Numbered from the stretch's first letter, positions 1-47,803 are shown. The stretch: DNA of 47,819 nucleotides from a virus (IMGVR_UViG_2534681833_000010); one strand, 5' to 3'. The notes: generated from the sequence alone by a model not told the origin. A program made the numbers and translations.

Positions 1-136
1 AGCGGCGGGGCACGCCGTACTTGCCTGTGGAGGGATGGTGCAGTCAGGCCGCCCGTTGAAGCAGGAACCCACCGAAATGATTCAGGCGACAGCCTGAACG
101 TAGCAGGGATCCACGCCCTTCGGGGCGTGGAGGATG

Positions 137-502
137 TCACGCTGCCTCTTTAATGTTGGCGGCTATCCATGCCGCCGTGTGCTGTTTAACCTGGTCCAGG
201 TCGATGTATGTGCCAACATATTGACTCAAGTCCTGTAACGTACCGATAAATGCATCAGTGCTCTGATCGACGAATTTATCAGCCAGGAATTCAGCAACCA
301 GTTTGGGCACACCATCATGTTCCGAAGGTTGTTTTTCTTCGCCACTACCGCCGCCAGACGCGCCGTACCCCATCTGTTGCATGATCTGGTCAATTTCATC
401 GCTGATATCCAGCAACTCCATGCCACTCGCGGTAGCCGCTTTGGACATCAGAGCATCCAACTTATCGCTGAGGTCCATTAACTCAATCGCTGATAGTGTC
501 AT
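137..502 (-). CDS. hypothetical protein, distal gene of dar operon (DdrA-like by synteny)
   Basis: 121-aa ORF overlapping the stop of the DarA-like gene by 4 nt; Gly/Ser-rich central linker; assigned by position only. Confidence 0.35.
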   Translation of the reverse strand: MTLSAIELMDLSDKLDALMSKAATASGMELLDISDEIDQIMQQMGYGASGGGSGEEKQPSEHDGVPKLVAEFLADKFVDQSTDAFIGTLQDLSQYVGTYIDLDQVKQHTAAWIAANIKEAA

Positions 503-2418
503 GCCGCTACCCCCGCTTTCTGGATTGCTACCAGCAGATCAGCCAGGTGGCGAGCTGCGCCATTAACCAGCTCTTCGTTTTCCTCAAAACGCCCGGCAGC
601 CTGAAGGGCTGCAATCGCTTCCCGGACATTACCCCGGGCGTTACGGATCTCCGCCATGTCAGTGCTTTGCATATCCATCACGCTATTGAGATATTCAATG
701 GCTTTATTAGCCTCTGCATCTGCTTCGCTAACCGTTTCATCAGGCTGTGCCGGGACCGGTTCTGGTTGAGTAATCTCACCGACTTCGGCCTGCAATGCAT
801 TGATCATGCTCTGCACCATTTTCTCGGTGCCAGCGCCCCCAGGAAACGCAATATTGGGGAAAGTTTTTTGAAACTGAGTTTTCAGCATTACGCGGAACTC
901 GTCTGGTGAGCTGGTGGCCAGCTCCAGAGCTTTTTGTGCATATTTGCCAAACGGACCATTAGTAAGTGTCTTCGCCAGGAAGTCGAAAGAATCCTCGCGA
1001 GGCAATAACTTCAGGTCGTACTCACTCATTTGCTGATCAGAAAGCGGGGTATCGTAAGTAGCAATGCCGTAGCGTGCATATTCATAATACGGGTCACCTT
1101 CATCAGGGCGCGGCAGAATCGCTTTGTTACCTTCAGGTATTGCGCCAGGGGCCGCCGGACGCATTTGCAGGGCATATCGATATGCACCTACAGAGACTTC
1201 TGGTTCAGGCGAAGAGCTACCGGTATCCTCCGCTGGTTCAGGTTCGACGTTTTCCGGTTTATGTTCTTCTGGTTGGACCAGATATTCCGATACATTACCC
1301 GCTTTATAGGCTTTAAACAGCTTGCCGATCGCATCTGCCATGTCCACACCCTGTATGGATTTAGCCTTGATCATGTATACGCTGCCATCCGGATCGGTTA
1401 ACTGGATATACCCTTCGCCATCCCCAATGAATTGCTTCATTGATGCACCATTACTGAGCGTCGCTTCCCCGTCCATATGCATACGATTTTTGATACTGGC
1501 AAGGCGATCCGTCAGCGCGCGAGAGTGCCCACCAGTCATCCCCGCTGGAGCAATGGTATCGCGCCCACCAGTGCGATTGAGCTGATCAATCTCCGTCTGC
1601 AAACGCTCATTCTCTTCATAAAGAGAATCCGCTTCCGATGCAACAGCGTTAATTTTCTGCTCCAGATCTGCCTTCTGCCCTTCTACCGCTGCCACCTGAT
1701 CCGCGAGGTCGCTCATGGCATCCTCTTTCTGGTCACTGTCAGCCTGTAGTTGGGTTATTTCATCAACAAGGGCTTTTTTCTTCTTCTGCGCACGCTGGAA
1801 TTTTGCCGAGTTTTTCTCTGCAAGGTTGGCAAGTTTCATGGTGACCTGCGCCAGCGTCATATCACGTCCACTCATCGGAGCAACGGTGTGAGTAACGTCT
1901 TTTTTATTCAGTAAGAACTGGAAAGCAACCAGCGTATCGCTATTGGTGATCCGGTTTTCCGCTGTCGGGCTATGAAACAGAATGCTGATAGTCTGACCAT
2001 CACTGAGCGGAATAATGGCTGGCAAGACCGGCAGCCCGTTAACGTTACGTGCCCGGCCAATTTCAGCGCCGCCGATCGCGCGCGCGCCGCTCTGGGCCAC
2101 ATCCCCCGTTTTATCACTCCCCGCAGAGATTCCGGTACCATTCAGCTTCTGGTTCAATGCCCGGACAAATGCCTGCATGGTCCGGTGTAACTGCAAACGA
2201 GTAGAACTAATCGCCTCCAGTAAATCCGTAGCACACCAGTGGATCGGCGTGTCATAGAAGAACGTAGCCTCGATTTCCTCCAGGGTGTTGGATTCCGTCA
2301 TCAGATAGCGGTCCTCACCGGCCATTAATGCGCGATATTCATCATCAGTCACTGGCGGGGGAAGCACGTCAAGCCCAGGCTTGAGCGTCACCCCTTTATT
2401 GATATTGAACTGTTCCAT
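499..2418 (-). CDS. darA: DarA-like defence-against-restriction internal virion protein
   Basis: 639-aa ORF with long central coiled-coil; lies downstream of holin/antiholin-like genes as in the P1 lydA-lydB-darA operon; shares a KNSAKFQ segment with the upstream 203-aa ORF. Confidence 0.5.
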   Translation of the reverse strand: MEQFNINKGVTLKPGLDVLPPPVTDDEYRALMAGEDRYLMTESNTLEEIEATFFYDTPIHWCATDLLEAISSTRLQLHRTMQAFVRALNQKLNGTGISAGSDKTGDVAQSGARAIGGAEIGRARNVNGLPVLPAIIPLSDGQTISILFHSPTAENRITNSDTLVAFQFLLNKKDVTHTVAPMSGRDMTLAQVTMKLANLAEKNSAKFQRAQKKKKALVDEITQLQADSDQKEDAMSDLADQVAAVEGQKADLEQKINAVASEADSLYEENERLQTEIDQLNRTGGRDTIAPAGMTGGHSRALTDRLASIKNRMHMDGEATLSNGASMKQFIGDGEGYIQLTDPDGSVYMIKAKSIQGVDMADAIGKLFKAYKAGNVSEYLVQPEEHKPENVEPEPAEDTGSSSPEPEVSVGAYRYALQMRPAAPGAIPEGNKAILPRPDEGDPYYEYARYGIATYDTPLSDQQMSEYDLKLLPREDSFDFLAKTLTNGPFGKYAQKALELATSSPDEFRVMLKTQFQKTFPNIAFPGGAGTEKMVQSMINALQAEVGEITQPEPVPAQPDETVSEADAEANKAIEYLNSVMDMQSTDMAEIRNARGNVREAIAALQAAGRFEENEELVNGAARHLADLLVAIQKAGVAA

Positions 2419-2419
2419 G

Positions 2420-3031
2420 TTAATTTCCTGCTTTCAGTTGCTTAAGACGACGTTTGAGTTCGCCATTCCGTGCCTTTTCGTTATTGAGTCGGCCCGTCTC
2501 CTTATCCAGCTTCGCCCGCAAATCAGTGATCTGCTGTTGATTGAAAGACACCGAATTCTGCGCGGACTTATAAGCGGCAACCACCTGAGCATTCCGCTGT
2601 TTTGCTTCTTGCAGGCGCTGAAAGTTGGATTTAACTGCCGGTTTCTTGTCTACCGGATTGGCAACACGCTTCGCTTTGGCGATCAGTGATTTCTGGAATT
2701 TTGCGGAGTTTTTGCGGGCCGCCTGTCCCATGACGGTACCAAGCGTCTTGATATCCGGCGACTGAGCGTTAGGAATAGCTTTTCCATTCAGTTTCACAGA
2801 CGATATATCGCCAGTATCGTTTACCTGTATGGCAAGAATTTGTCCGTCGTTAAGAACCAGCTTTGCGGTTTTAACTTTAACGCCATCTTTCGTTGTTGCG
2901 CGGTTGCTGGAGTCAACCTCAATTACCGTAACCCCGGTTTTATTGATCGCCGCGATAAGGGATTTCAGCCCCTTTTCATTAACCTGGTCAAAATCGACCG
3001 TTGCATACTTATTTTTCGTCATCTGACACAT
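2420..3031 (-). CDS. Hdf-like protein (paralogous to a DarA segment)
   Basis: 203-aa ORF; segment ARKNSAKFQ also present in the DarA-like ORF (AEKNSAKFQ); coiled-coil C-terminus; 1-nt gap to darA start. Confidence 0.4.
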   Translation of the reverse strand: MCQMTKNKYATVDFDQVNEKGLKSLIAAINKTGVTVIEVDSSNRATTKDGVKVKTAKLVLNDGQILAIQVNDTGDISSVKLNGKAIPNAQSPDIKTLGTVMGQAARKNSAKFQKSLIAKAKRVANPVDKKPAVKSNFQRLQEAKQRNAQVVAAYKSAQNSVSFNQQQITDLRAKLDKETGRLNNEKARNGELKRRLKQLKAGN

Positions 3032-3452
3032 CCTGTGCGAGATTTATTACGTAACTTCTGCGGATTTGCTGAGTAACAGGGAAAATCCGATACAACGGGT
3101 TAATGAACGAGTCGCCATGCGTAACCATGACGTTGAAATGCCACAGTCGCTCTCCTTTACCCATATATTCAGTGGGTATGTACAACCATTCACTGTTTTC
3201 GCCCTGTTCAGCCGACGTCAGACAACGTTGTTCACCTTCAATCACTGTCGTCGGCTTCTGAACATCGCGGATCCAATATCTGACCGTTGCGCCGCGCAAA
3301 AACGGGAATTTAGACCGGTATTTGAACGGCACCCGGATGAAACCCGGTTTAATTTCCACATCACCAAGTTCTAAATGCGTGATGTCCTTGCGTTTTAGCA
3401 AATAGCGATCGGCTAAGGCTAACGCAAGAACGCATACACCCCAGCCAATCAT
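3009..3452 (-). CDS. LydB-like lysis regulator (antiholin candidate)
   Basis: 147-aa ORF overlapping the holin-like gene stop by 4 nt and lying inside the dar operon; assigned by size and synteny. Confidence 0.35.
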   Translation of the reverse strand: MIGWGVCVLALALADRYLLKRKDITHLELGDVEIKPGFIRVPFKYRSKFPFLRGATVRYWIRDVQKPTTVIEGEQRCLTSAEQGENSEWLYIPTEYMGKGERLWHFNVMVTHGDSFINPLYRIFPVTQQIRRSYVINLAQDVSDDEK

Positions 3453-3778
3453 TTCCCGCCTCCCTTTTTCACCAAACTTGTAAGAACATTCAGAATGCTA
3501 TCGATATTCACTCGTTTCATCCCTGAAATCACCTCATGACCGTTATTGCTGGCTATCGTTACCATTAAGTACGTAATTGATAACTCCCAGCCCTCGTGTT
3601 GCCCCAATAGGTACGCCACCGCGCCAGCTGTCACTGCAACAAAGATCTCCGTAACCAATCCCAACAAATTGCCAGACTGGCGACCGTCTCGGACATCCAT
3701 CAGGAACGTGCCTATCCCACCAATTACTGAAAGCAGGAGCGCAATAGCAACTGGAGCTAATTCCTGTGTGTCAAGCAC
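3449..3778 (-). CDS. holin-like small membrane protein (LydA-like)
   Basis: 109-aa ORF with two to three hydrophobic helices (AIALLLSVIGGIGTFL, IFVAVTAGAVAYLL) and charged C-terminal tail (KKGGGK). Confidence 0.45.
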   Translation of the reverse strand: MLDTQELAPVAIALLLSVIGGIGTFLMDVRDGRQSGNLLGLVTEIFVAVTAGAVAYLLGQHEGWELSITYLMVTIASNNGHEVISGMKRVNIDSILNVLTSLVKKGGGK

Positions 3779-3845
3779 AAGTTCCCTCCTACGTTGTCAG
3801 GAGGTAATGGTATGCAAAGTAACTTCTCAACCGGTCATTTGTTGC

Positions 3846-4196
3846 TTAAGAGGCATTTCTATTGAGGTACGAATCGATAATCCTTTGTGACTTTTCAAGA
3901 ATGAGCCTGTTATTGATGCTGCAAATAATAGTCACGCAATTCTGAAGACTTTCATCCATACCCTTATATTCCGCGAAATACATGCCTATAAAGCCTGCAA
4001 GTACGGCAGCAATACACTCGGCCATCAATTGTCTGCATGACGCTTCGTAACGTTTTTCACGAACCCCATTCAGAAACGAATGCACGCCTCCAAGGATGGT
4101 TATAAAAAATATGGTTAAATCAAACATTAAAGTAACCCCGCTTTTCAATAAAACATCATTGGGGCACGGTATGCACTTTGTGATTTCCACACACAC
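3846..4196 (-). CDS. hypothetical small membrane protein
   Basis: 116-aa ORF in AT-rich DNA with hydrophobic segments (LTIFFITILGG, CIAAVLAGFIGMYF). Confidence 0.3.
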   Translation of the reverse strand: MCVEITKCIPCPNDVLLKSGVTLMFDLTIFFITILGGVHSFLNGVREKRYEASCRQLMAECIAAVLAGFIGMYFAEYKGMDESLQNCVTIICSINNRLILEKSQRIIDSYLNRNAS

Positions 4197-4254
4197 TGGT
4201 TTCTGTTAATTAAAATCCGCAGCTTGCTATGAATAACTATGGTGAGCAGAAAAT

Positions 4255-4481
4255 ATGCTAATTGGCTATGTACGCGTATCAACAAATGAACAAAACACTG
4301 CTTTACAACGAAATGCTCTTGAAAGCGCAGGATGTGAGCTAATTTTTGAGGACAAGGCGAGCGGCAAAAAGGCTGAACGACCAGAGTTAAAAAAATGCTT
4401 TTGAGAGGTGACACTCTGGTCGAATGAAAGTTAGATTGGCTTGGATGCAGTATGCGCTCGCTCTTGAAGCATGAACAGTAA
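4255..4481 (+). pseudogene. cin: decayed serine DNA invertase (Cin/Gin/Pin/Hin family) remnant
   Basis: Translation [49 protein letters not shown] then stop; homology to invertases continues out of frame ([25 protein letters not shown]) with an in-frame stop; catalytic N-terminal motif present, remainder deleted. Confidence 0.7.
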
Positions 4482-4547
4482 TCATCTTATCAGGATGCAC
4501 TGGAACCAGTCGATGCTTCCAGCGATCCAGATATTTCATTAAATGGA

Positions 4548-4697
4548 CTACGCCTCCGGGAACGCTGGCAAATTGACATCTGGTGCAGTGCTGGTATCCG
4601 TTGCGGTCACCGCATCGATATAATCCAGCACAGCGTTAAGACGGGTGGTTTCAGCCTGCGTAAGATTCCGCCCGGCCTGTAATTTCAGTTGAATAGA
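4548..4697 (-). pseudogene. tail fibre assembly protein (Tfa/U family) C-terminal domain fragment
   Basis: Open segment translating to ...LNAVLDYIDAVTATDTSTAPDVNLPAFPEA, resembling the conserved C-terminus of lambda Tfa (..[22 protein letters not shown]..); no start codon; different frame from the upstream 79-aa ORF. Confidence 0.45.
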
Positions 4698-4717
4698 CTA
4701 ATGGAGCCATTGCGGTA

Positions 4718-4957
4718 TCAATCAGCGACTGTTTTTTCTGTTTCAGCGTCAGCTACCAGTTCATCATGAGAACGTTCCGGAGTGGGTGGTGCAGTAAATC
4801 CCCCGTCTGAATACACCCAGCCGATTCCGGGCTGCTCACTGATATCAGAAATATTAATGAGCTGCTGATTATCCGGCACTGTGAATTCAGCCTCGCCATC
4901 CCAGACAATGACATTCACAACCATCCCATTTTCAATAACTGCATATGATGTATTCAT
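4718..4957 (-). CDS. hypothetical protein translationally coupled to tail fibre gene (possible Tfa N-terminal module)
   Basis: ATG overlaps the tail-fibre stop (TAATG); 79 aa from MNTSYAVIENG...; followed out of frame by the Tfa C-terminal fragment. Confidence 0.35.
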   Translation of the reverse strand: MNTSYAVIENGMVVNVIVWDGEAEFTVPDNQQLINISDISEQPGIGWVYSDGGFTAPPTPERSHDELVADAETEKTVAD

Positions 4958-6821
4958 TATGCAAACTCCTCGATAATACAAATCCCTGCAGCGCCTTTCC
5001 CGCCCGTCATACTGGTTCCGCTATAACCGGCATCGTATGCACCACCGCCGCCCGAACCATATGCCCGACCGATAACGCCACCGCCAGCGCCTGCGCGACC
5101 ACCGCCCCCCCAGAACGATGATCCTCCTTCACCACTGACGCTGATATTTCCGGACTGACCGTCTCCTCCATGCCCACCAATAATGCGGACATCACCAGTA
5201 TTCGGCGCGCCTCCATTACCACCGTTCGTGTTTGTGACTCCTACTTTCCCGCCGCCTTCACCGCCAGGGGCTATTACCGTTCCGAACGAGCTATCACCGC
5301 CCTTGAGGCCGTTCGTAGCACCAACACCGCCGCCCCCACCTGCGCCGATAGTGACAGGATAACTATCCTTCGTCAGGGTCAGCGTGACAATTACTGTCCC
5401 GCCGGCCCCACCGCCTGCACCGAAAAACGTTTCGTTATTGGATGTAGCCTGGCAGCCACCCCCTCCGCCACCGCCGCCCGTAATTGTGACCCTGATTCGT
5501 TTAGTTCCTGGTGTCGGGGTGTACGTACCTGATGAAGTGAAAATTCGAGTGTTTACAAGGCGTCCAACGTATCCACTTGCATCGCTCAGGCCAAGGTCAG
5601 CAGTAGTAGGTTTATTTTTAGTGTTATACGCTCTGCGCCATCCAGGTGAATAACTTGAGCCATTAGACACATAGATAAACTCCGCATTAGTGAGTGCACC
5701 AGTGACATTTGTCGTAGTGGCCGTTGTTATTCGAATGGTGTAATTGTTGGTATTATTGCTGAATACTTCTATCACAGCACCCGCCAGTGGAATAATGCCA
5801 CAACCAGTTTCACTGTCTGGTATGGATGCACTATTCGCATACGCCCATGCACAACGAGCGATCCATGCTTTCGTATTGAATGCCCCGTTATTTTGCAACA
5901 AAGTAACTAACTGGGCTGTCGTTATTGACTCACCGTTATTACCTGTTGTTAACCAACCAGTAGGAGATGCCGGGCAACCAATATTTGCTGGTGACAGTGA
6001 AATATTCGCAGAACCGTCAAATGAAACCCCATTAATGGTACGCGCTGTTTGCAATTTGGTAGCCGTAGCTGCATTACCGGTCGTGTTCTGGTTACCAGCA
6101 ATGTTTACACCCGGCAGGTTGATATTGGCGGAGCCATCGAATGACACGCCGCCGATTGTGCGGGCCGTCTGAAGTTTCGTTGCGGTTGCAGCATTACCAG
6201 TCGTGTTCTGGCTACCAGCAATATTCACGCCCGGCAGGTTGATATTGGCGGAGCCATCAAATGAAACGCCACCAATGGTTCTTGCCGTTTGTAATTTCGT
6301 GGCAGACGCCGCATTTCCTGTTGTGTTCTGGTTGCCCGTTGTATTTACGCCCGGTATGGAGTCTTTCGATGTATAGACCTGTGCCCACTCAGACCATGCC
6401 GCATCTGTGTTATCTCTTCTGGAGCGAATTAAGATAGGTGCATGAGCACCACTTGTAGCACTCCAGCCAATGAGTAACTCGCCTTCACCTCTTGATGTGG
6501 CTCCCTTCAGGTGAAGAATGTTCCCGTAAGCCGTAGGATAACCATTGTTGTACGCCTCATACATTTGCAACCCAGCTGCATCGCCTTGCGTTGTTCCGGT
6601 GAGCGCAGTAACACGTCCTCTGGACGTAATTGTTGGGATCGAAATGTCCGCAGAACCATCAAACTGAACACCATTGATGTTTCTCGCCTTTTGCAACTTC
6701 GTAGCCGTTGAAGCATTGCCGTTCAAACTACCATTGATGCCGCCAGTAACATCGAGCCCATTACCGATCGTAACAGTACCATTGGCATTGTTAATGATAA
6801 GCGGCCTTAAATTATTATAGG
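4957..6821 (-). pseudogene. tail fibre protein, distal (C-terminal) portion separated from the rest by IS2
   Basis: Reading frame continues across the IS2 target duplication into the upstream portion (..NSLGTY|NNLRPLIINN..); contains about 31-aa tandem repeats (ATATKLQTARTIGGVSFDGSANINLPGVNIAG.QNTTGNA) and a poly-Gly/Gly-rich C-terminal domain (TITGGGGGGGGCQ..GAGGGAGG..). Confidence 0.75.
5986..6354 (-). repeat. in-frame tandem repeats (about 93 bp unit, nearly 4 copies) within tail fibre gene
   Basis: Near-identical nucleotide and peptide repeats; further copies in the N-terminal portion. Confidence 0.7.
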
Positions 6822-6912
6822 TAGACTGGCCCCCTGAATCTCCAGACAACCAATATCACTTATTTAAGTGATAGTCTTAATACTAGTTTTTAGACTAGTC
6901 ATTGGAGAGCAG

Positions 6913-7278
6913 ATGATTGATGTCTTAGGACCGGAGAAACGCAGACGGCGTACTACACAGGAAAAGATCGCTATTGTTCAGCAGAGTTTTGAACCGGGAA
7001 TGACAGTCTCCCTTGTTGCCCGGCAACACGGTGTGGCAGCCAGCCAGTTATTTCTCTGGCGCAAGCAATACCAGGAGGGAAGTCTTACTGCTGTGGCCGC
7101 AGGAGAACAGGTCGTTCCTGCCTCTGAACTTGCTGCCGCCATGAAGCAGATTAAAGAACTCCAGCGCCTGCTCGGCAAAAAAACGATGGAAAATGAACTC
7201 CTTAAAGAAGCCGTTGAATATGGGCGTGCAAAAAAGTGGATAGCGCACGCGCCCTTATTGCCCGGGGATGGGGAGTAA
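6913..7278 (+). CDS. insC: IS2 transposase OrfA (InsC)
   Basis: [41 protein letters not shown]... helix-turn-helix and leucine-zipper OrfA of IS3 family. Confidence 0.85.
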
Positions 7279-8141
7279 GCTTAGTCAGCCGTTGTCTCCG
7301 GGTGTCGCGTGCGCAGTTGCACGTCATTCTCAGACGAACCGATGACTGGAAAGATGGTCGCCGCAGCCGTCACTCAGATGATACGGATGTGCTTCTCCGT
7401 ATACACCATGTTATCGGAGAGCTGCCCACATATGGTTATCGTCGGGTATGGGCGCTGCTTCGCAGACAGGCCGAACTTGATGGTATGCCTGCGATCAATG
7501 CCAAACGTATTTACCGGATCATGCGCCAGAATGCGCTGTTGCTTGAGCGAAAACCCGCTGTACCGCCATCGAAACGGGCACATACCGGCAGAGTGGCTGT
7601 GAAAGAAAGTAATCAGCGATGGTGCTCTGACGGGTTCGAGTTCCGCTGTGATAACGGAGAAAAACTGCGAGTCACGTTCGCGCTGGACTGCTGTGACCGT
7701 GAGGCACTGCACTGGGCGGTCACTACGGGCGGCTTCAACAGTGAAACAGTACAGGACGTCATGCTGGGAGCGGTGGAACGCCGTTTCGGCAACGAGCTTC
7801 CGGCGTCTCCAGTAGAGTGGCTGACGGATAATGGTTCATGCTACCGGGCTAATGAAACACGGCAGTTTGCCCGGATGTTGGGGCTTGAACCGAAGAACAC
7901 GGCGGTGCGGAGTCCGGAGAGTAACGGCATAGCAGAGAGCTTCGTGAAAACGATAAAGCGTGACTACATCAGTGTCATGCCCAAACCAGACGGGTTAACG
8001 GCAGCAAAGAACCTTGCAGAGGCATTCGAGCATTATAACGAATGGCATCCGCATAGTGCACTGGGTTATCGCTCGCCACGGGAATATCTACGGCAGCAAG
8101 CCAGTAATGGGTTAAGTGATAACAGGTGTCTGGAAATATAG
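7236..8141 (+). CDS. insD: IS2 transposase OrfB (InsD; expressed as InsCD by -1 frameshift)
   Basis: 301-aa ORF with DDE integrase-type catalytic domain (..WCSDGFEF.., ..[11 protein letters not shown].., ..[11 protein letters not shown]..) overlapping insC. Confidence 0.85.
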
Positions 8142-8152
8142 GGGCAAATCCA

Positions 8153-10477
8153 ATAGGTTCCCAGGCTGTTACCCGAATTGGTCAACATGAAATATGTCTT
8201 TGAGCCATCGTTTCGGATAAAGAATCCGTAGCTTCCATAGGCAATGCGGAAACCATTTGCATATCTTGAAACGATCTCACCAGTAGCCGTTAAACCGCCG
8301 TTGAGATTTCCTCCGGTTATTGGTAATGCGCCGACATCCGTGGCGGTCGGTTTAATGTGCGAACTGTAAATAACATATACCGTTCCATCAGTAAGACCAG
8401 TTGGTTTATCTACTGTGTAATTTGGTGATGTATGAATCGTTACGCTGGCGTTACTGGTATAATCCCACTGGATATTTACACCCGTGGCGTAATTACCTAT
8501 TTCAACATAAACATCATAGGTATCACCGGATGTATTCACCCATGCAAAATTAGTAAATCCAACCGATGTCCGTCGCCATAACGCACCAGTAAGACCTTTT
8601 GGATTCCCATTTCCCGCACGAAGAACAAGTTCAGATATACCAGCCTGCATAGGGGAGTTAACATTATATCCAGAACTACCAATCAGGCTTATGTAAACTA
8701 CGGAACTTGCCTGTGGCATGGTTACAGTTGCCAGCTTGAACCATCCTGCACCACCAATAAAAGACATGGTTGTTGAGTTGATCGTGCCTATAGACCTTGG
8801 AGTTAGCTCAATGTTTTTAGAACCGTCAAACGACACCCCATTTATAGTTCTCGCGGTTTGTAACTTGGTCGCTGTAGCCGCGTTACCGGATGTATTCTGA
8901 TTCCCCGCAACGTTAACACCAGGTAAATTAATATTCGCAGTACCATCAAATGCCACACCGCCAATCGTGCGTGCTGTTTTCAATTTCGTCGCGGTGTCGG
9001 CGTTCCCTGTCAGCGCCCCGGTGATCCCACCGTTGAAAGTCTGGCGTGCACTCCATGTGTTAGCCGTGCTCAACAGGGGGATCTTTTCACCGCTGGTACC
9101 GATTTCTCTTAAACCAAGGTATTGGATAACAGCCAGTGTGCTTGTTTTAGCCAGGATATCGCGACCGACTGACGTTAAATCAGTCTGGGAAACAGTGTCT
9201 GTACCGGTAAAGTACGGCAATTTATTTGCGCCAGTCGTAAGGCCAGCGAGCGCTGTTAAAGTTGCATCAAGTGGCTGTTTCCCTGCCAGCGCATTTGTCA
9301 TTGTTGTCGCAAAGTTCGGGTCATTGCCAAGTGCTGCTGCAAGCTCATTCAGGGTATCAAGAGCTTCTGGTGATGAGCCGACCAATGCAGATATAGCAGC
9401 CCGTACGTAAGCAGTCGTAGCGATCTGCGTATTGTTTGTGCCCTGTGCAGCGGTAGGTGCAGTAGGGATACCCGTTAATGCAGGGCTTGCCAAAGGCGCT
9501 TTGAGAGCCAGGGCATTGTTGATAGTTGTGCTGAAATTCGGGTCGTTATTGATCGCAGCCGCAATTTCTTTCAACGTATCCAGTGCTCCAGGAGCACCAT
9601 TGATAAGTGCTGTTATAGCTGCCTTAACAAAGGCTGTGTTTGCGATCTGCGTGCTGTTTGTACTTTGCGCTGCCGTAGGCGCGGTTGGCGTTCCTGTAAG
9701 CTCTGGGCTTTCTATTGGCGCTTTGGTATCAGCCAGCTCTTTTACAGACTTAACGGCTTTAGGGGTAGCCGCCATTGTTTCGCTGTCGCTGTTAGTTGCG
9801 CTACTGAGCTGAACTAATCCCTTTTGTGTTGTGCTTGCATCCTGCGCCGTATACTTGCTTTTCGCCAGATCGTAGGCTTTTTTAACCGCCAGCGAACTTG
9901 CAGCGACATCACTTCTGGTACTGGTTACAGAGTCGGAAATTTCAATGCCTATCGTGAGATCGATGCGGTCGGATACATCTATCATTTCCTGAGTAATAGC
10001 AGATACGCCAGCAGGGATATTCACCGTACAAACAAGCAGTTCCCCATCTCCTAACTGATATGAATCGGTATAGGTTCTGGCAACAAATTCAGCCGCATGA
10101 ATATGTGACGCGGTATTAACCTGATAAGAATCTTCTCCAAGGAGGTATCTTCCCTTCAGCACAATTGCATATTTCTTACCTGCGCTAAGTGCAAGAGAAA
10201 TATCCTTACGCTGCTGAATAGTTACCTGGTAGAATTCACCAATATTCACTGACGCCGCGCCAGCGGTTTTATCACCATCCACTGAGGTGATTAACAGGTT
10301 CATCCCACCGCCAGGCTTCGGCAGGAAACCAGCATAAAATCCAGGGTCAACAATTCCCCTGAATTTTCGGTTTAGCGCGGCTGACAGATATGGTTCGTGG
10401 TATTGCACATCAGCCACCAGAGCCAACGACTCGGGTGATGGGTAAGTAACCGATGTAACAACTGTAACGTCATTCAT
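8153..10477 (-). pseudogene. tail fibre protein, N-terminal portion (IS2-interrupted)
   Basis: Start ATG at 10475-10477 with AAGGA 9 nt upstream (MNDVTVVTSVTYPSPESL...); two about 69-aa repeats (TAPTAAQ.TN.TQIA.TA.V.AAI.AL....P.ALDTL.E.AAA..NDPNF) and fibre-type repeats shared with the distal portion. Confidence 0.75.
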
Positions 10478-10488
10478 CAAGCATATCC

Positions 10489-10923
10489 TTATGCTGTAGT
10501 CGTGTTTATGGCCATAACTGCGGTATATGTTTTGCCCACATACAGCGAGTCTTCCTGGACACAAATAATGGCGATTGGCTTGTTCTCGTTATCCAGAACA
10601 ACCAGAGTGTTGAATGGGTAGTTTTTCCCTTCCTGCAACTGGCTTTGATCAAGGTCCATTCGGACAGTAATTATCCCGCCTGAGTAGGTTGGAACGAGGT
10701 CGATGGTGCAAAATTGACTTGTCAGTTCAGCCAGATCGAAAGCCTTTGGCAGTTCTCCAATCTCATAAGTACCATCTCCTTTCTTAGTAACCAGTGAACT
10801 GGTACCGAAAACGGCCTTACTGATTAAAAATCGAGAGCCTTTGTTAATGGACGATTCAGCGCGCCGCTGATAGTAATAGTCCAACAACTGACTCTTATAG
10901 AGGTTTGTTGAGACGTCAGACAT
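10489..10923 (-). CDS. tail-fibre-associated virion protein (P1 R-like by position)
   Basis: 144-aa ORF immediately upstream of the fibre gene in the same operon. Confidence 0.3.
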   Translation of the reverse strand: MSDVSTNLYKSQLLDYYYQRRAESSINKGSRFLISKAVFGTSSLVTKKGDGTYEIGELPKAFDLAELTSQFCTIDLVPTYSGGIITVRMDLDQSQLQEGKNYPFNTLVVLDNENKPIAIICVQEDSLYVGKTYTAVMAINTTTA

Positions 10924-11001
10924 GATTTTCCCTAATCAATGTTGTGAAGCCTCATTGTAAGAGAAGTAACTTGTCACCCCGCCCTACGGACGGGGTGATT
11001 G

Positions 11002-13271: not shown

Positions 13272-13627
13272 AGCACCACGTCCTGTGTGATAGTTATATC
13301 CCTGATACGAATGGATATTTTCAACTTATCAAAAGCATCTCCCTCGGCAACTGACAAGCCAGAAATCGGTATGTCAGGTAAATCTTCCGTCAGTTTTTGC
13401 AACAGCATTGCCTCAACCGCAATTTGAACATGCGACAAGTTGGTCGGTTCGTGTTTAAACTGCGGTAAAACATTGCCCCATGACGGATCCCCGTATACCT
13501 CACCCTGATAAGTGTTTAGCCACTCATATAAACGAGCGCCCCAGGCCTCCTCCTGGGACTCATACGTTTTTACGCCGGATAACTCCAGCGTCAGCAAAGG
13601 ATCAATTTCGTTATTGTTGGCCATCAA
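13268..13627 (-). CDS. small baseplate component (gp25/W-like by position)
   Basis: 119-aa ORF directly downstream of the Sit-like gene, overlapping by 4 nt. Confidence 0.3.
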   Translation of the reverse strand: MMANNNEIDPLLTLELSGVKTYESQEEAWGARLYEWLNTYQGEVYGDPSWGNVLPQFKHEPTNLSHVQIAVEAMLLQKLTEDLPDIPISGLSVAEGDAFDKLKISIRIRDITITQDVVL

Positions 13628-16600
13628 TCAACTCTCGCGTAGTCATTCATCAACGGATCATCAATTGACAGTGGTACCGTGCGCATAACGCCCGGCTGAG
13701 GCGTGCTGACCTTTACGACAGTTCCCTGGCCTTTCGCCGAGTCTTTGGTGTGCTCTTCAATCCTGGCAAGTAATGAGGTCATCTGCGCAAACAGCCGCTT
13801 CGTTTCACCATCAAGTGAAACGGTATTATCAGCCAACTGCATTGTCGGCTTGGCACCGGAACCACCAAGGTCACTAATAACCTGTCCGTCTATCTGCATA
13901 CGACCGGTTGGTTGCTGCAAATCGTTGGCGGCAGTCGTCACCTGGGACGTGGAGGCTGGTTCAGGCGCATTATTTTTCCGCATCCCCGGCGAGTTGCGGA
14001 GTTTATCGAATAGTCCATCAATCCCCATTTGTGCGCCGAGTTGGTCAAAGTAACTTGAGTTGCTGGTCACCGGACGCGCCTCTTCAACTGGCATCGGAGT
14101 ATCAACATACACATTGCCAGCTGCTGTTGCGGTCCCCTTCCCTCGTGCACGTTCTTCGAGCGTTCCCTGAACGACTTCCCGACGCATACCCCGGCCATTC
14201 ATGAATTTGTTGACCAGATCGTTAACGCCAACAGCATTGCCGATTTTGTCTACCAGACCGCCTTTCTCAAACGGGCTATCACCAGGGGTAAACGCCAGGC
14301 CAGTAGACTGATCGATAACAGCGTTATCAGGCAGTGGTCCCCTCACTCCATATTGCGCCCCACCCTGTGCTCCTGCTCCAGGTGTATAGATTTCACCACC
14401 TAAATAGCGAGCACGATGAGTATTGACCTTGATCGCGTACTCACGGTTTTCTTTCGATAAGTCACCTGTGCCTTTTTTCCACTTATTGATAGTGCCAAAC
14501 CCAGCGTTATATGCAGTGATGGCCTCGTTTAAGTCTCCATTGGCTTGCTTCAGATACTTGCTCATGAGAAGAGCCGCAGCTTCTGCCGATTTCACAGGAT
14601 CAAACGATTCACCTTCAGCTAAGCCAGTCTCTTCACGAGCAATCCCCGTGAACTGAAACATTCCCAGAGCACCGGTTTGGGATTTTGCATACGGATTACC
14701 ACCAGATTCAGTTGCAGCAATCGCGTAAAGAGTGCCTTCTGGAAGACCATATTTATTCTCTAGTTCAGCAAAATACGGAGCCAACTTATCGAGATTTGCC
14801 TTACCTTCAGATCCAAGACTTCCGACTTTTACATCCAAGCGGCCATTGTTGTAGGTATCCGCAGCTTTCTGAATGTCATTCCTGGTGCCAGTGGTATTAA
14901 GCGACGATGATGACGAGCTATTTTGACCAATAGCTTTATCAATTTTCTGCAACGCGCTATTGCCCGTTTCTGCGGCATTTGCATTGATAATCTGATTCGC
15001 AGTTTCTTTAACTGTTTTATTGCTATCTTTCGCCGTGTCCAGTGCCGCATTTATCACGCGGGTAACAATATTAGTCTGTTTGGCATCGGATTCAGTTTTA
15101 GAATCAGATGTCTCCTGGTGGCTATTAACCGGAGCTTTTAACTCTGGAGCGATTTCTTTCGCATTAGCCTCGCCGATCGGATTGGGTATTTTTGATACAA
15201 TCATTGCCGCAGGGGTATTTTTAACGGCATCAACCGCTGCATCTAATGCTTTACCAGGTAAATTTTTAACCCCATCCCAAATATTACCAGCCGCCTCTTT
15301 AATGTGTTTCCCTGGGTTCTTAATGAAATCAATTGCACTATCAATTGCATCACTGAAAACCTGTTTCAGGTTATCAACAGTAAAGAAGTCTTTGATGGCA
15401 TCCAGCTTTTCAAGCAGCTTATTAGATGTATCGCTAAACCATGCTGAAACAGCATCACCAATCTTTGCTGTGTAATCTTCGAACTTGGTAGAAATGGTGT
15501 CGCCAAGGTTAGAAATATATGTTTCTAAGTTGGTAATCCCACTATCAATGGCCTGGGCAATACTTTCCGTCGAAAATGATTGCAACATATTGCCGATATC
15601 CTCAAATCCAAGTGATTTGAGAACCTCACCAATGGCGCTGCTAATACCAGATACCAGTCCCCCCATATCAAGAACATTGGCTAACGTATAAGCGGCTTTT
15701 TGCTGGAATGATGGATCTTGTCCTGATTTAAGCCCAAACGCTCGACGTTGCGCTTCTGTATCATTCCAACCGGTTACCGCATCATAAATACCTCCAGCCA
15801 CTGTGCCGACTAAGGGAATTGCGCGTAACGCCCCTTTACCAACTGCCTTTAATCCAAGTTTACCTGCTGCCCGGGCAGCCAAATCTCCACCTTCATGGGC
15901 GATAGTCTTCTTGCCACCACCGCGTAGCATTCCTACAAGTTTCTTTGCCCCCAGAGCGCCAAAAGCGAGTGCTCCAGCTTTTTTCAGCATGCCACGCCCC
16001 ATTAACAACGACGCGACGCCACCGGCCCCCTTCCCTAACAGGCTAAATAGTTTGGACAGCAAGCCGCCCTTCTTTTTCCCGGTGTTTTTGGCTATCTGAT
16101 CAAGGGCGCTGAGAATCTTGTCATTGCCCTCTTTAATTTCGCTGGTCTGCTCCTGAAGTTCCTGAACTGTCCGTTTTTGGGTGTTAACCTGAACGACATC
16201 GGCACTATTTTGCGATTTACGCCTAAAAAAACCTTTTCTACGGCTGTTATCGTCATTGCCACGAATCACATCGGCAATAGACTTTCTGGCACCATTAAGC
16301 GATCCACCAACTTCTTTTGATATCCCGCCAAGCTCCTTCCCTGCTGCCCACAATGGACCAGCAACGGCATAACCTAACGCATCAACGGCACGAGTCTCTG
16401 AAGGGTTACCTATGCCTTCAGCTACTTTTGACAGTTTTTTTAATAAACCTGATTCAGCATTTAGACGCTCATCATCCTCTTTGCGCCTGGCCTTTTCAGC
16501 ACGTTCAGCACGGGCATCTTCCGCTGCGGCCTTACTCCCTGACTTTCCAATAAAACGACCACGCGCATCGCGTTGGTTTTGGCTTTTTTGCGCACCGCCT

Positions 16601-17313
16601 TTTTGATCGAACATTTCGCGAGCGTGTTCGGCTGCTTCGGTCCGTTGTGCCTTTATATCCTCTGGTATAGCCTTCCTGCGTCGTTTTTTACCCTTTGGTG
16701 TAGTTGATTTGGCCTGCTGTTCCTGTTGAGCAATGCCCTCCTGAACTACACGAGAAACGTCCCCTAAATTAAGCCGTTTCATTGCGTCAACAATAGGGTC
16801 TACTGATGGCGCATTGGCCACAAAGTCTGGCCGGGAATTTTCGATTGTTCGATTTAATGCCGACACACTGCGAGATACTGGGTCAACCGTTGCAACGCGT
16901 TCCCCTTTCAAATCACGAGCGAGTTTGACCGTTTCTAACCGCTGTGCTTTAACATCCTCTGTTATTGCCTCTCTTCGTCTATTTGGGGGATTGTGCGCTG
17001 TTGGTGCAGCCTGCTGTGCACGGTTAGTGACTTTGTCCTCCCGTATACGAGAAACGTCCCCTAAATTAAGCCGTTTTATTGCGTCAACAATAGGGTCCAC
17101 TGATGGCGCATTGGTCACAAAGTCAGGACGTGAATTTTCGATTGTGCGATTTAATGCCGACACACTGCGAGAGACAGGATCAACAGTTGCAACTCGTTCC
17201 CCTTTCAAATCTTCAACAGCTTCCCGAATACCTGCAAGCTCTTCCAGCTCTTTCGCGCTGGCGGTTTCAACTGTCCTTATAACATCGTCAATATTGGCGT
17301 TTTTTCTTTCCAT
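13624..17313 (-). CDS. sit: Sit-like virion protein with lytic transglycosylase domain (tape-measure/injection protein)
   Basis: 1229-aa ORF; SLT-type motif ..AIAATESGGNPYAKSQTGALGMFQF..AYNAG.; Gly/Lys-rich and coiled-coil segments; internal duplicated 55-aa segment. Confidence 0.6.
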   Translation of the reverse strand: MERKNANIDDVIRTVETASAKELEELAGIREAVEDLKGERVATVDPVSRSVSALNRTIENSRPDFVTNAPSVDPIVDAIKRLNLGDVSRIREDKVTNRAQQAAPTAHNPPNRRREAITEDVKAQRLETVKLARDLKGERVATVDPVSRSVSALNRTIENSRPDFVANAPSVDPIVDAMKRLNLGDVSRVVQEGIAQQEQQAKSTTPKGKKRRRKAIPEDIKAQRTEAAEHAREMFDQKGGAQKSQNQRDARGRFIGKSGSKAAAEDARAERAEKARRKEDDERLNAESGLLKKLSKVAEGIGNPSETRAVDALGYAVAGPLWAAGKELGGISKEVGGSLNGARKSIADVIRGNDDNSRRKGFFRRKSQNSADVVQVNTQKRTVQELQEQTSEIKEGNDKILSALDQIAKNTGKKKGGLLSKLFSLLGKGAGGVASLLMGRGMLKKAGALAFGALGAKKLVGMLRGGGKKTIAHEGGDLAARAAGKLGLKAVGKGALRAIPLVGTVAGGIYDAVTGWNDTEAQRRAFGLKSGQDPSFQQKAAYTLANVLDMGGLVSGISSAIGEVLKSLGFEDIGNMLQSFSTESIAQAIDSGITNLETYISNLGDTISTKFEDYTAKIGDAVSAWFSDTSNKLLEKLDAIKDFFTVDNLKQVFSDAIDSAIDFIKNPGKHIKEAAGNIWDGVKNLPGKALDAAVDAVKNTPAAMIVSKIPNPIGEANAKEIAPELKAPVNSHQETSDSKTESDAKQTNIVTRVINAALDTAKDSNKTVKETANQIINANAAETGNSALQKIDKAIGQNSSSSSSLNTTGTRNDIQKAADTYNNGRLDVKVGSLGSEGKANLDKLAPYFAELENKYGLPEGTLYAIAATESGGNPYAKSQTGALGMFQFTGIAREETGLAEGESFDPVKSAEAAALLMSKYLKQANGDLNEAITAYNAGFGTINKWKKGTGDLSKENREYAIKVNTHRARYLGGEIYTPGAGAQGGAQYGVRGPLPDNAVIDQSTGLAFTPGDSPFEKGGLVDKIGNAVGVNDLVNKFMNGRGMRREVVQGTLEERARGKGTATAAGNVYVDTPMPVEEARPVTSNSSYFDQLGAQMGIDGLFDKLRNSPGMRKNNAPEPASTSQVTTAANDLQQPTGRMQIDGQVISDLGGSGAKPTMQLADNTVSLDGETKRLFAQMTSLLARIEEHTKDSAKGQGTVVKVSTPQPGVMRTVPLSIDDPLMNDYARVD
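16750..17211 (-). repeat. two about 165-bp direct repeats (about 95 percent identical, 297 bp apart) inside sit
   Basis: Encode DLKGERVATVDPVSRSVSALNRTIENSRPDFV.NAPSVDPIVDA.KRLNLGDVSR twice (aa 35-89 and 134-188). Confidence 0.8.
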
Positions 17314-23489: not shown

Positions 23490-24068
23490 ATGCTGGCTAA
23501 AGTCACTTTCCTGAGCTGTATAACGATGAGCGATTTTACTTTTTCTGGCTATGAATTGGCCTGCTTTGTAACACACTCCGGTCTATCCCGTAGCGCCGGG
23601 CATATCTTGTCGCAATGTGCAAATCTCGCGGCAACAACCAGTGAATACTTCATTCACAAGCCTCACCGCCTGATCGCGGCAGAAACTGGTTATAGCCAAT
23701 CAACCGTCGTTCGTGCATTCCGTGAAGCTGTAAACAAAGGAATCCTGTCTGTAGAGATTGTTATCGGCGATCACCGTGAACGTCGCGCTAACCTGTACCG
23801 GTTTACACCATCCTTTTTGGCCTTCGCACAACAAGCCAAAAATGCGCTGATTGAAAGCAAATTAAAGATCTCTTCAGCGGCAACCAAGGTTAAAGCTGTT
23901 CTCGCTAAGACATTGGCTTTATTTAATTTTTTATCCACACCCCCATGTCAAAATGATACCCCCTCCCCCTGTCAGGATGACGTGGCAATAAAGAATAAGA
24001 AGTCACAAGTTAAAAAACAAAAAGATCAGTTTCCGGCGGTGCCGGAACGACCAGACTCAAAAAATTGA
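23490..24068 (+). pseudogene. repL: RepL-like lytic replicon protein, N-terminal part ending at an apparent frameshift
   Basis: ORF downstream of kilA; ends in a Lys-rich tail at an A5 run; reading continues in the +1 frame with no start codon or RBS. Confidence 0.45.
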
Positions 24069-24334
24069 CTTCATGGATCGCTGAGGCAAAAGCAAAGGCT
24101 GACAATCTGCGGTTATCCAAAAAACGCGCTCAAAAACATGAGTTCAAGCAGAAAGTAGAGGCGGCAGCGCGGAAATATGCTTACCTGAAGGACAAGCGTT
24201 CTCCTGATATTGGCGGGATATCAAACTTCGATAATCTGCCGCATTGCATGACGGTAAACGAAGCTCTTAATGCGGTTTTAGCCAAAAATAAAGATAACGA
24301 ACAATGGGGTATACCGGCAGGATTCAGAGGGTGA
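24066..24334 (+). pseudogene. repL: RepL-like C-terminal continuation in shifted frame
   Basis: 89 codons opening with TTG inside the overlap TTGA; combined length 281 aa matches recalled RepL size. Confidence 0.35.
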
Positions 24335-24989: not shown

Positions 24990-26328
24990 CATAAGCGCTA
25001 ACTTAAGGGTTGTGGTATTACGCCTGATATGATTTAACGTGCCGATGAATTACTCTCACGATAACTGGTCAGCAATTCTGGCCCATATTGGTAAGCCCGA
25101 AGAACTGGATACTTCGGCACGTAATGCCGGGGCTCTAACCCGCCGCCGCGAAATTCGTGATGCTGCAACTCTGCTACGTCTGGGGCTGGCTTACGGCCCC
25201 GGGGGGATGTCATTACGTGAAGTCACTGCATGGGCTCAGCTCCATGACGTTGCAACATTATCTGACGTGGCTCTCCTGAAGCGGCTGCGGAATGCCGCCG
25301 ACTGGTTTGGCATACTTGCCGCACAAACACTTGCTGTACGCGCCGCAGTTACGGGTTGTACAAGCGGAAAGAGATTGCGTCTTGTCGATGGAACAGCAAT
25401 CAGTGCGCCCGGGGGCGGCAGCGCTGAATGGCGACTACATATGGGATATGATCCTCATACCTGTCAGTTCACTGATTTTGAGCTAACCGACAGCAGAGAC
25501 GCTGAACGGCTGGACCGATTTGCGCAAACGGCAGACGAGATACGCATTGCTGACCGGGGATTCGGTTCGCGTCCCGAATGTATCCGCTCACTTGCTTTTG
25601 GAGAAGCTGATTATATCGTCCGGGTTCACTGGCGAGGATTGCGCTGGTTAACTGCAGAAGGAATGCGCTTTGACATGATGGGTTTTCTGCGCGGGCTGGA
25701 TTGCGGTAAGAACGGTGAAACCACTGTAATGATAGGCAATTCAGGTAATAAAAAAGCCGGAGCTCCCTTTCCGGCACGTCTCATTGCCGTATCACTTCCT
25801 CCCGAAAAAGCATTAATCAGTAAAACCCGACTGCTCAGCGAGAATCGTCGAAAAGGACGAGTAGTTCAGGCGGAAACGCTGGAAGCAGCGGGCCATGTGC
25901 TATTGCTAACATCATTACCGGAAGATGAATATTCAGCAGAGCAAGTGGCTGATTGTTACCGTCTGCGATGGCAAATTGAACTGGCTTTTAAGCGGCTCAA
26001 AAGTTTGCTGCACCTGGATGCTTTGCGTGCAAAGGAACCTGAACTCGCGAAAGCGTGGATATTTGCTAATCTACTCGCCGCATTTTTAATTGACGACATA
26101 ATCCAGCCATCGCTGGATTTCCCCCCCAGAAGTGCCGGATCCGAAAAGAAGAACTAACTCGTTGTGGAGAATAACAAAAATGGTCATCTGGAGCTTACAG
26201 GTGGCCATTCGTGGGACAGTATCCCTGACAGCCTACAAAACGCAATTGAAGAACGCGAGGCATCGTCTTAACGAGGCACCGAGGCGTCGCATTCTTCAGA
26301 TGGTTCAACCCTTAAGTTAGCGCTTATG
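24990..26328 (+). mobile_element. IS186 (IS4 family), complete, with 10-bp target duplication GGAGAGATCC
   Basis: Terminal inverted repeats CATAAGCGCTAACTTAAGGGTTG at both ends; direct repeats at 24980-24989 and 26329-26338; target is a GC-rich palindrome. Confidence 0.85.
25045..26157 (+). CDS. insL: IS186 transposase
   Basis: MNYSHDNWSAILAHIGKPEELDTSARNAGALTRRREIRD... recognised as IS186 transposase. Confidence 0.85.
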   Translation: MNYSHDNWSAILAHIGKPEELDTSARNAGALTRRREIRDAATLLRLGLAYGPGGMSLREVTAWAQLHDVATLSDVALLKRLRNAADWFGILAAQTLAVRAAVTGCTSGKRLRLVDGTAISAPGGGSAEWRLHMGYDPHTCQFTDFELTDSRDAERLDRFAQTADEIRIADRGFGSRPECIRSLAFGEADYIVRVHWRGLRWLTAEGMRFDMMGFLRGLDCGKNGETTVMIGNSGNKKAGAPFPARLIAVSLPPEKALISKTRLLSENRRKGRVVQAETLEAAGHVLLLTSLPEDEYSAEQVADCYRLRWQIELAFKRLKSLLHLDALRAKEPELAKAWIFANLLAAFLIDDIIQPSLDFPPRSAGSEKKN

Positions 26329-46477: not shown

Positions 46478-47803
46478 TGAATCCCCTAATGATTTTGGTA
46501 AAAATCATTAAGTTAAGGTGGATACACATCTTGTCATATGATCAAATGGTTTCGCGAAAAATCAATAATCAGACAACAAGATGTGCGAACTCGATATTTT
46601 ACACGACTCTCTTTACCAATTCTGCCCCGAATTACACTTAAAACGACTCAACAGCTTAACGTTGGCTTGCCACGCATTACTTGACTGTAAAACTCTCACT
46701 CTTACCGAACTTGGCCGTAACCTGCCAACCAAAGCGAGAACAAAACATAACATCAAACGAATCGACCGATTGTTAGGTAATCGTCACCTCCACAAAGAGC
46801 GACTCGCTGTATACCGTTGGCATGCTAGCTTTATCTGTTCGGGCAATACGATGCCCATTGTACTTGTTGACTGGTCTGATATTCGTGAGCAAAAACGACT
46901 TATGGTATTGCGAGCTTCAGTCGCACTACACGGTCGTTCTGTTACTCTTTATGAGAAAGCGTTCCCGCTTTCAGAGCAATGTTCAAAGAAAGCTCATGAC
47001 CAATTTCTAGCCGACCTTGCGAGCATTCTACCGAGTAACACCACACCGCTCATTGTCAGTGATGCTGGCTTTAAAGTGCCATGGTATAAATCCGTTGAGA
47101 AGCTGGGTTGGTACTGGTTAAGTCGAGTAAGAGGAAAAGTACAATATGCAGACCTAGGAGCGGAAAACTGGAAACCTATCAGCAACTTACATGATATGTC
47201 ATCTAGTCACTCAAAGACTTTAGGCTATAAGAGGCTGACTAAAAGCAATCCAATCTCATGCCAAATTCTATTGTATAAATCTCGCTCTAAAGGCCGAAAA
47301 AATCAGCGCTCGACACGGACTCATTGTCACCACCCGTCACCTAAAATCTACTCAGCGTCGGCAAAGGAGCCATGGGTTCTAGCAACTAACTTACCTGTTG
47401 AAATTCGAACACCCAAACAACTTGTTAATATCTATTCGAAGCGAATGCAGATTGAAGAAACCTTCCGAGACTTGAAAAGTCCTGCCTACGGACTAGGCCT
47501 ACGCCATAGCCGAACGAGCAGCTCAGAGCGTTTTGATATCATGCTGCTAATCGCCCTGATGCTTCAACTAACATGTTGGCTTGCGGGCGTTCATGCTCAG
47601 AAACAAGGTTGGGACAAGCACTTCCAGGCTAACACAGTCAGAAATCGAAACGTACTCTCAACAGTTCGCTTAGGCATGGAAGTTTTGCGGCATTCTGGCT
47701 ACACAATAACAAGGGAAGACTTACTCGTGGCTGCAACCCTACTAGCTCAAAATTTATTCACACATGGTTACGCTTTGGGGGAAATTATGAGGGGATCTCT
47801 CAG
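46474..47803 (+). mobile_element. IS10 (Tn10-type, IS4 family)
   Basis: Outside end CTGATGAATCCCCTAATGATTTTGGTAAAAATCATTAAG at 46474; inside end ..GGGGATCTCTCAG ending 47803; no matching 9-bp target duplication. Confidence 0.85.

Follow-up and report, generated by a model that had tools for sequence, protein, structure and literature searches.

Inversion switches of P1 and related elements

The closest described counterpart of the locus analysed here is the Cin/cix switch of phage P1 (NC_005856), a member of the Din family (Cin, Gin, Hin, Pin, Min) that lies between lydC and the tail-fibre genes S and R. The same layout is still intact in pSBF45b (NZ_CP067234.1), which has the backbone of our element and keeps a 186-aa Cin, exact cixL and cixR sites and a P1-type Sv'/U' arm, together with an arm of tfa and glycine-rich Sv that matches ours at 95% identity. 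On other phage backbones, the P2-like phage 500465-2 (NC_049343) and the PEC422 prophage near tonB carry an invertase followed by an Sv'-tfa' cassette converging on tfa-Sv, with the invertase and both cassettes intact; in PEC422, a chromosomal prophage, both arms have glycine-rich tips. A prophage beside tonB/yciI in NZ_CM168005.1 (2864109-2876434) contains an intact recombinase, two glycine-rich fibre-tip cassettes and convergent tfa genes, and an IS3-family element (IS2-like) sits between its two tfa genes.

Degenerate versions of the switch have also been described. Venturini et al. 2019 (Sci Rep 9:18861, PMC6906374) noted a 'partial invertase orf' in pSvP1, in which the switch was presumably lost, and reported P1-like plasmids without a complete C-segment, the host range of which is possibly restricted. 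Other surveys treat lydC-cin-Sv'-U'-U-S as a hypervariable region of P1-like plasmids, and the inversion region has been surveyed as the part most exchanged between the P1 and D6 types. The truncation of cin and the lost switch are therefore already known, since they have been published for this lineage and are reflected in a pseudogene call in RefSeq.

The window and its relatives

The window, which is the whole stretch of 47,819 nt that was analysed, is part of a P1-like phage-plasmid of Escherichia coli and originates from the draft contig AIGE01000007.1 (assembly GCA_000249775.2). It covers 47.8 kb of that 52-kb contig, and statements on absences from the whole replicon rest on the complete 139-kb sibling pSvP1_F (NZ_MN510446.1), with which the window shares 99.96-99.99% identity over ~44 kb. 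The gene order ddrA-darA-hdf-lydB-lydA-lydC-cin'-tfa-S-R-16-bplA is that of P1 around cin and the C segment, and the backbone is of the Punavirus type (90-95% nucleotide identity in NC_005856 order), with the lydC-cin stretch matching P1 at ~90% identity by megablast. The features discussed below are as follows.

137-4127: ddrA (137-502), darA (499-2418), hdf, lydB, lydA and lydC (3846-4127), in that order
4255-4456, plus strand: cin' pseudogene, corresponding to P1 cin nt 1-212 and Cin residues 1 to ~71
4273-4344, plus strand: orphaned recombinational enhancer of Cin-mediated inversion, within the cin 5' end
4457-4486: deletion junction between the cin and tfa' remnants, the breakpoint being placeable only within ~30 nt
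4487-4547, plus strand: 3'-terminal tfa' remnant, about the last 20 codons with a 5-bp insertion, convergent with tfa
4548-4957, minus strand: tfa, the cognate assembly gene (gpU equivalent), 136 aa in relatives and with three 1-bp indels here
4957-6821, minus strand: distal part of S, codons 774-1394, glycine-rich receptor-binding tip (Pfam Gly_rich_2)
6822-8152, plus strand: IS2, 1331 bp, inserted in S after codon 773 with ATAGG duplicated
8153-10477, minus strand: proximal part of S, codons 1-773, with Sc, the first 134 bp of the C-segment inverted repeat and a mosaic Sv
9104-9129: orphan cixR, the crossover site where Sc meets Sv (S codons ~451-457)
Beyond the minus-strand fibre gene: R (10489-10923), gene 16 and bplA

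Compared with P1, the window retains the 5' end of cin (88-97% nucleotide identity), the enhancer (71/72), cixR (20/20), and Sc with the first 134 bp of the inverted repeat (95%). It differs from P1 in possessing only frameshifted Cin residues 1 to ~74 and in lacking cixL, Sv' and U', which makes inversion impossible; its Sv is a mosaic with a glycine-rich tip instead of the P1 Sv, and its chaperone is a 136-aa lambda-Tfa-type protein instead of P1 U. The sibling pSvP1_F, a phage-like plasmid of porcine ETEC O157, is identical to the window in the sequences of the cin stub, junction, tfa' remnant, cixR and S, and differs in that its S is uninterrupted, its tfa is intact and its IS2 lies in sit; it is also rearranged and fused to F-plasmid DNA.

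The cin stub and its enhancer

The plus-strand ORF at 4255-4404 encodes 49 aa that are 94% identical to P1 Cin residues 1-49 (tblastn, E 1e-26) and match positions 2-55 of the 145 positions of Pfam Resolvase (E 4.7e-13), so that the original prediction of an invertase reduced to its first 49 codons is borne out. In the nucleotide comparison, P1 cin nt 1-212 pairs with 4200-4456 at 88% (blastn, E 7e-98), and this alignment to the P1 invertase region, which had been proposed as a check, places a 10-bp deletion between 4395 and 4396 (P1 GGTACTCCGT). The deletion shifts the cin frame and thereby produces the stop at 4402-4404. Downstream of the stop, Cin-like codons in another frame can be followed as far as residue ~74, at ~4466 (tblastn with Cin 1-49 and 47-74), after which homology stops; these are the frameshifted, stop-containing remnants that had been anticipated. 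Residues 1 to ~74 are thus all that is left here of a serine recombinase that, when intact, comprises ~186 aa with a full catalytic domain and a C-terminal helix-turn-helix. In RefSeq relatives, the stub carries the PGAP label 'recombinase family protein; frameshifted; incomplete; missing C-terminus' and lies next to genes for a tail-fibre assembly protein and a 1394-aa tail fibre, both of them intact.

Within the stub, 71 of the 72 nt at 4273-4344 agree with the NC_005856 feature 'enhancer of Cin-mediated C-segment inversion', and a predicted Fis-dependent recombinational enhancer is accordingly still present in cis. The first ~140 nt of cin, in which the enhancer is included, are 97-99% identical to P1. 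A minus-strand ORF of 50 aa at 4387-4539 was dismissed as a gene, as it overlaps both the stub and the tfa' remnant and its conservation is broken by T-run indels in relatives.

The deletion scar

P1 cin homology at the nucleotide level stops at 4456, and tfa' homology is secure from 4487 onwards and can be followed, more weakly, as far back as ~4462; the intervening 4457-4486 does not convincingly resemble either parent. Across 4487-4559, the window is 76-78% identical at the nucleotide level to the region of P2-like phages in which convergent tfa' and tfa genes overlap at their 3' ends, and the plus-strand translation YQDALEPVDASSDPDI aligns with the tfa' C-terminus DYLDALELVDTSGAPDIEWPTPP. 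In phage 500465-2, tfa' is the second gene, situated in the invertible arm beside the invertase. According to the multiple alignment, ~60-85 nt of the tfa' 3' end are left in the window, and pEC18-3 keeps 18 more nt of the remnant. A peptide in the '+3' frame, SSYQDALEPVDASS, had been considered as degenerate Cin (RSLTDSIDTST), a candidate that was rejected given that both DNA and protein align to tfa' C-termini. The locus therefore contains a deletion scar, in which codon ~71 of cin now adjoins the final ~20-30 codons of a tfa' gene of convergent orientation.

The comparison with pSBF45b gives the extent of the loss, as ~2.5 kb of that plasmid (14621-12084 of its compared locus) are missing from the window. 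No cix-like site was found within 4255-4957 when up to 6 mismatches in 20 were allowed or when the 26-nt Din consensus was used. A Cin-mediated deletion that left a hybrid cix at the junction was thus rejected, the sole site lying at 9104-9129, and the absence of cix-like sequence from the junction indicates that the deletion was illegitimate rather than mediated by Cin.

An orphan crossover site and the loss of the switch

The single cix site of the window is well preserved, with 9107-9126 identical to P1 cixR at 20 of 20 positions. Searching with the 26-nt Din-type cix consensus returned one match in the window, at 9104-9129 with 2 mismatches, and none in 100 shuffles. Neither the window nor the complete 139-kb pSvP1_F contains a second cix site, each having one; no long inverted repeats were detected in 3800-11000, and no other invertase or second tfa was found in the window or in the complete sibling. 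Instead of two inverted cix sites flanking a segment and two alternative fibre cassettes, each with an assembly gene, there are one site, one Sv and one tfa. The original prediction had reported no convincing cix-like site, which holds for the interval 4255-4957 and fails for the wider locus, where the exact cixR lies outside that interval. The intact invertase and second fibre cassette elsewhere on the replicon that would have contradicted the prediction were not encountered in the complete sibling used as a stand-in, and the alternative cassette had rightly been called deleted, since cixL, the Sv'/tfa' cassette and the paired inverted repeats are all gone.

It could be argued that the switch still functions, with its missing parts located at another place on the replicon, or with Pin or another chromosomal member of the Din family supplying invertase in trans. 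Din-family invertases complement one another across phages, and both cixR and the enhancer are well preserved, which fits such a possibility. Inversion nevertheless needs two inverted cix sites on one molecule, and the window and the complete sibling have one each, with no second tfa/Sv cassette or invertase in either and no inverted repeats around the fibre genes. A functional switch is thus largely refuted and must be considered extremely unlikely; inversion is impossible when a single cix site and no recombinase are left.

A related proposal is that the orphan cixR, together with the enhancer, serves as a landing site at which a chromosomal Din-family invertase of the Pin type recombines the fibre gene with cix-type sites in the fibre cassettes of resident prophages and so swaps fibre tips. 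Such exchange between replicons would be occasional and would need no resident invertase. A mosaic Sv and the presence of the cin'-tfa-Sv module in both P1-like and D6-like plasmids are compatible with this proposal and are equally explained by ordinary homologous recombination. At 95% identity, homology to P1 extends from R across Sc and cixR and continues for 134 bp inside the former inverted repeat of the C segment. The acquisition of a new Sv by exchange exactly at the cix crossover was rejected on this ground, and the extension of P1 homology 134 bp past the crossover point also disfavours landing-site exchange at cix, so that the proposal as a whole appears highly improbable, and occasional exchange between replicons without a resident invertase no less so.

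The tail-fibre gene and its IS2 insertion

The original prediction had taken the fibre gene as intact, whereas S is split by an insertion sequence. The element at 6822-8152 is an IS2 (IS3 family), with the ends TAGACTGGCC...GGGGCAAATCCA and ORFs of 136 and 301 aa; it is 95-99% identical to IS2 copies annotated in phage records, and its 5-bp target duplication, ATAGG, can be read directly at 6817-6821 and 8153-8157. When the IS2 and one duplicate were removed in silico, a 1394-aa ORF was restored that is 98.9% identical to the intact S of NZ_CP116245.1. The proximal part, starting at an ATG at 10477, contains Pfam Phage_fiber_2 and Gp34_trimer and is covered by the 95% identity to P1 S that extends from 11000 down to 8973. 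The distal part with the receptor-binding tip is cut off from the promoter-proximal part by IS2.

The proposal that the element is locked in one host-range state is therefore right in that inversion is impossible and falls short in that the sole remaining state is broken too. This copy is probably fibre-defective rather than merely locked, and judging from its sequence the element most likely persists as a plasmid, without adsorbing virions.

In pSvP1_F, IS2 occupies sit (14330-15672 of its compared segment), and the equivalent position in the window, 14926-14931, is an empty site within the 1229-aa sit gene at 13624-17313. The siblings thus carry IS2 in different tail genes.

The assembly gene tfa

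The start of tfa overlaps the stop of S (TAATG at 4955-4959). From the ATG at 4957, the reading frame yields a 79-aa ORF ending at 4718, and the C-terminal domain (4697-4551) follows out of frame and ends at the TAG at 4550-4548. This piece matches positions 87-131 of the 131 positions of Pfam Caudo_TAP (PF02413; E 4e-9), which places it in the family, and is 98% identical to residues 89-136 of the Tfa of an intact relative, which itself matches Caudo_TAP positions 25-131 (E 1.8e-22). The description of a Tfa C-terminal domain (4548-4697) out of frame behind a 79-aa ORF is thereby confirmed by both Pfam and alignment. Its interpretation as a remnant of the lost switch did not stand, as the gene belongs to the retained fibre and is separated from the intact gene of the sibling by three indels only: relative to pSvP1_F, an A is missing after 4695, another A is missing after 4704, and there is an extra T at 4741. 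Undoing the three indels in silico gives a protein 100% identical to the 136-aa Tfa of the sibling. Whether the indels are real or artefactual, tfa is the chaperone cognate to the fibre that was kept, rather than a leftover from the deleted cassette.

The indels themselves could probably be attributed to sequencing or assembly errors in the draft contig, in which case tfa would be truly intact and IS2 alone would disable the fibre operon. Over ~44.5 kb aligned to pSvP1_F, there are 4 indels in total and a handful of substitutions; 3 of the 4 indels fall within 47 bp, a clustering with a chance of ~4e-6 under random placement, and they are accompanied by zero substitutions across 1-6822. The source is a draft WGS contig, tfa is intact in all six aligned relatives, the three-indel allele is absent from 5,426 complete E. 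coli genomes, and the 79-aa product appears on the source contig only in the gene-position index, which offers no independent confirmation of the indels. A possible cause would be consensus errors from co-assembled reads of paralogous prophage tfa genes, as an E. coli genome has tfa-like sequence at as many as 5 loci, most of them on the chromosome. Against an artefact, the indels lie in runs of 1-3 nt, unlike the long homopolymers typical of pyrosequencing errors, the remainder of the contig is very clean, and relaxed selection downstream of the IS2-disrupted S makes real decay plausible.

Should the frameshifts be real, tfa would be a recent strain-level pseudogene and, together with S::IS2 and a frameshift at 24017, would indicate a phage-plasmid degrading to a plain plasmid. 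Such decay would agree with the IS2 in S, with the further 1-bp deletion that splits a 281-aa gene at 23490-24334, with the shortening of ban beside a transposase at 46581, and with the description of P1-like plasmids, the sibling included, as riddled with IS elements and probably defective. Three independent indels in 47 bp with zero substitutions across 6.8 kb are nevertheless an unlikely natural pattern, a single frameshift would suffice for inactivation, and the variant occurs in no second assembly. Real decay is a serious contender on this evidence, and an artefact is somewhat more likely.

Several observations were made on the remainder of the window. The deletion at 24017, in an A-run, is the only indel relative to pSvP1_F outside tfa; it leaves the 281-aa gene, annotated with a helix-turn-helix in the sibling and situated at the P1 repL position after kilA, as two ORFs (192 and 89 aa) and may reflect a sequencing error in the homopolymer. 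The DnaB-like helicase gene at the P1 ban position (45554-47819 region) ends after 307 aa with half of the DnaB_C domain and is followed by a DDE transposase ORF from 46581 to the end of the window, which suggests that the ban-position gene was disrupted by another IS insertion. An IS4-family transposase (DDE_Tnp_1, 372 aa) lies at 25039-26157, with the repL-like gene on one side and the stretch collinear with the partition and replication genes of P1 on the other; across this element, the window and the sibling are only 99.4% identical.

Distribution of the stub

The lesion is lineage-wide and not peculiar to the element in the window. P1 cin matches were found in 464 plasmids, full-length in 219 of them, and the junction (4380-4560) is present at full length in 44 PLSDB plasmids at 82-100% identity, all from E. 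coli, non-mobilizable and 80-140 kb in size. Two D6-like plasmids, NZ_CP058619.1 and CP099081.1 (rep_cluster_1704), have the same stub, tfa' remnant and tfa module at 5948-6748. In both, similarity to the window sets in within the first ~60 nt of cin, a start point that indicates exchange of the entire fibre module, with its pseudogene, between the P1-like and D6-like groups. A 5.17-Mb chromosome record (NZ_CP097001.1, 496724-499488) also contains this module of cin stub, tfa and fibre gene; the record could reflect an integrated P1-like element or an assembly joining a plasmid to the chromosome.

This distribution might suggest that the stub is kept for a new role, as a promoter or Fis-binding enhancer driving antisense transcription into tfa and S, or as the source of a 49-aa peptide. 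Persistence in 44 plasmids, the near-identity to P1 of the first ~140 nt with the enhancer, and the almost invariant sequence of 4320-4500 across 7 aligned relatives, including the D6-like ones, would all fit. The ORF is nevertheless not conserved: an A-run has 6 or 7 residues, and PGAP reports internal stops and differing frameshifts. Promoter and terminator scans over 3700-5200 yielded nothing exceeding shuffled expectation, and recent common ancestry with module exchange accounts for the high identity. Lineage-specific extra indels occur in the stub, and the pEC18-3 lineage, at 82% identity, carries such indels, as neutral decay predicts. A retained function is thus very doubtful, and the differing indels between lineages suggest that the stub is decaying neutrally.

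A proposed history of the locus

Taken together, the locus is very probably the fossil of a Cin/cix tail-fibre inversion switch of a P1-like phage-plasmid, which arose through a single illegitimate deletion followed by later lesions. We infer the following order of events. The ancestral layout, of the type still intact in pSBF45b, would have had lydC, then cin and a cixL-Sv'-tfa' arm reading in one direction and converging on tfa-Sv-cixR-Sc and R reading in the other. One illegitimate deletion of ~2.5 kb would then have brought cin codon ~71 up against the final ~20-30 codons of tfa', removing two-thirds of the recombinase with its DNA-binding domain, cixL, the alternative fibre tip and its chaperone. 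Since the recombinase, one crossover site and the alternative arm would have been deleted together, the R-S-tfa operon would have been fixed in a single configuration with the glycine-rich tip. Subsequently, the stub would have drifted neutrally, through the 10-bp deletion, the variable length of the A-run and further deletions that differ between lineages, and it would have passed, by inheritance or by exchange within the fibre module, to no fewer than 44 phage-plasmids of E. coli, of both the P1-like and the D6-like types. The copy in the window would have received two later lesions, namely IS2 in S after codon 773 and the indels in tfa, be they real or assembly errors.

Two points weigh against this history. 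The breakpoint is not placeable to the nucleotide, and pSBF45b itself has a shorter tfa' remnant downstream of tfa, between the P1-type U' and tfa, so that the remnant in the window may have come with an imported glycine-rich cassette instead of deriving from a cassette deleted in the window lineage.

Implications for P1-like phage-plasmids

The finding has little significance beyond correct annotation, as the fibre region of P1-like elements is a recognised recombination hot-spot. Its contribution lies in the nucleotide-level reconstruction of the scar, between cin codon ~71 and the tfa' 3' end, and in the retention of an orphan cixR. Being present in at least 44 plasmids, the scar could serve as a lineage marker. 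With its sequence taken at face value, the element in the window would be a prophage without functional tail fibres that persists only as a plasmid, and the disruption of the sole remaining fibre gene by IS2 bears on the phage spread of this ETEC-associated element.
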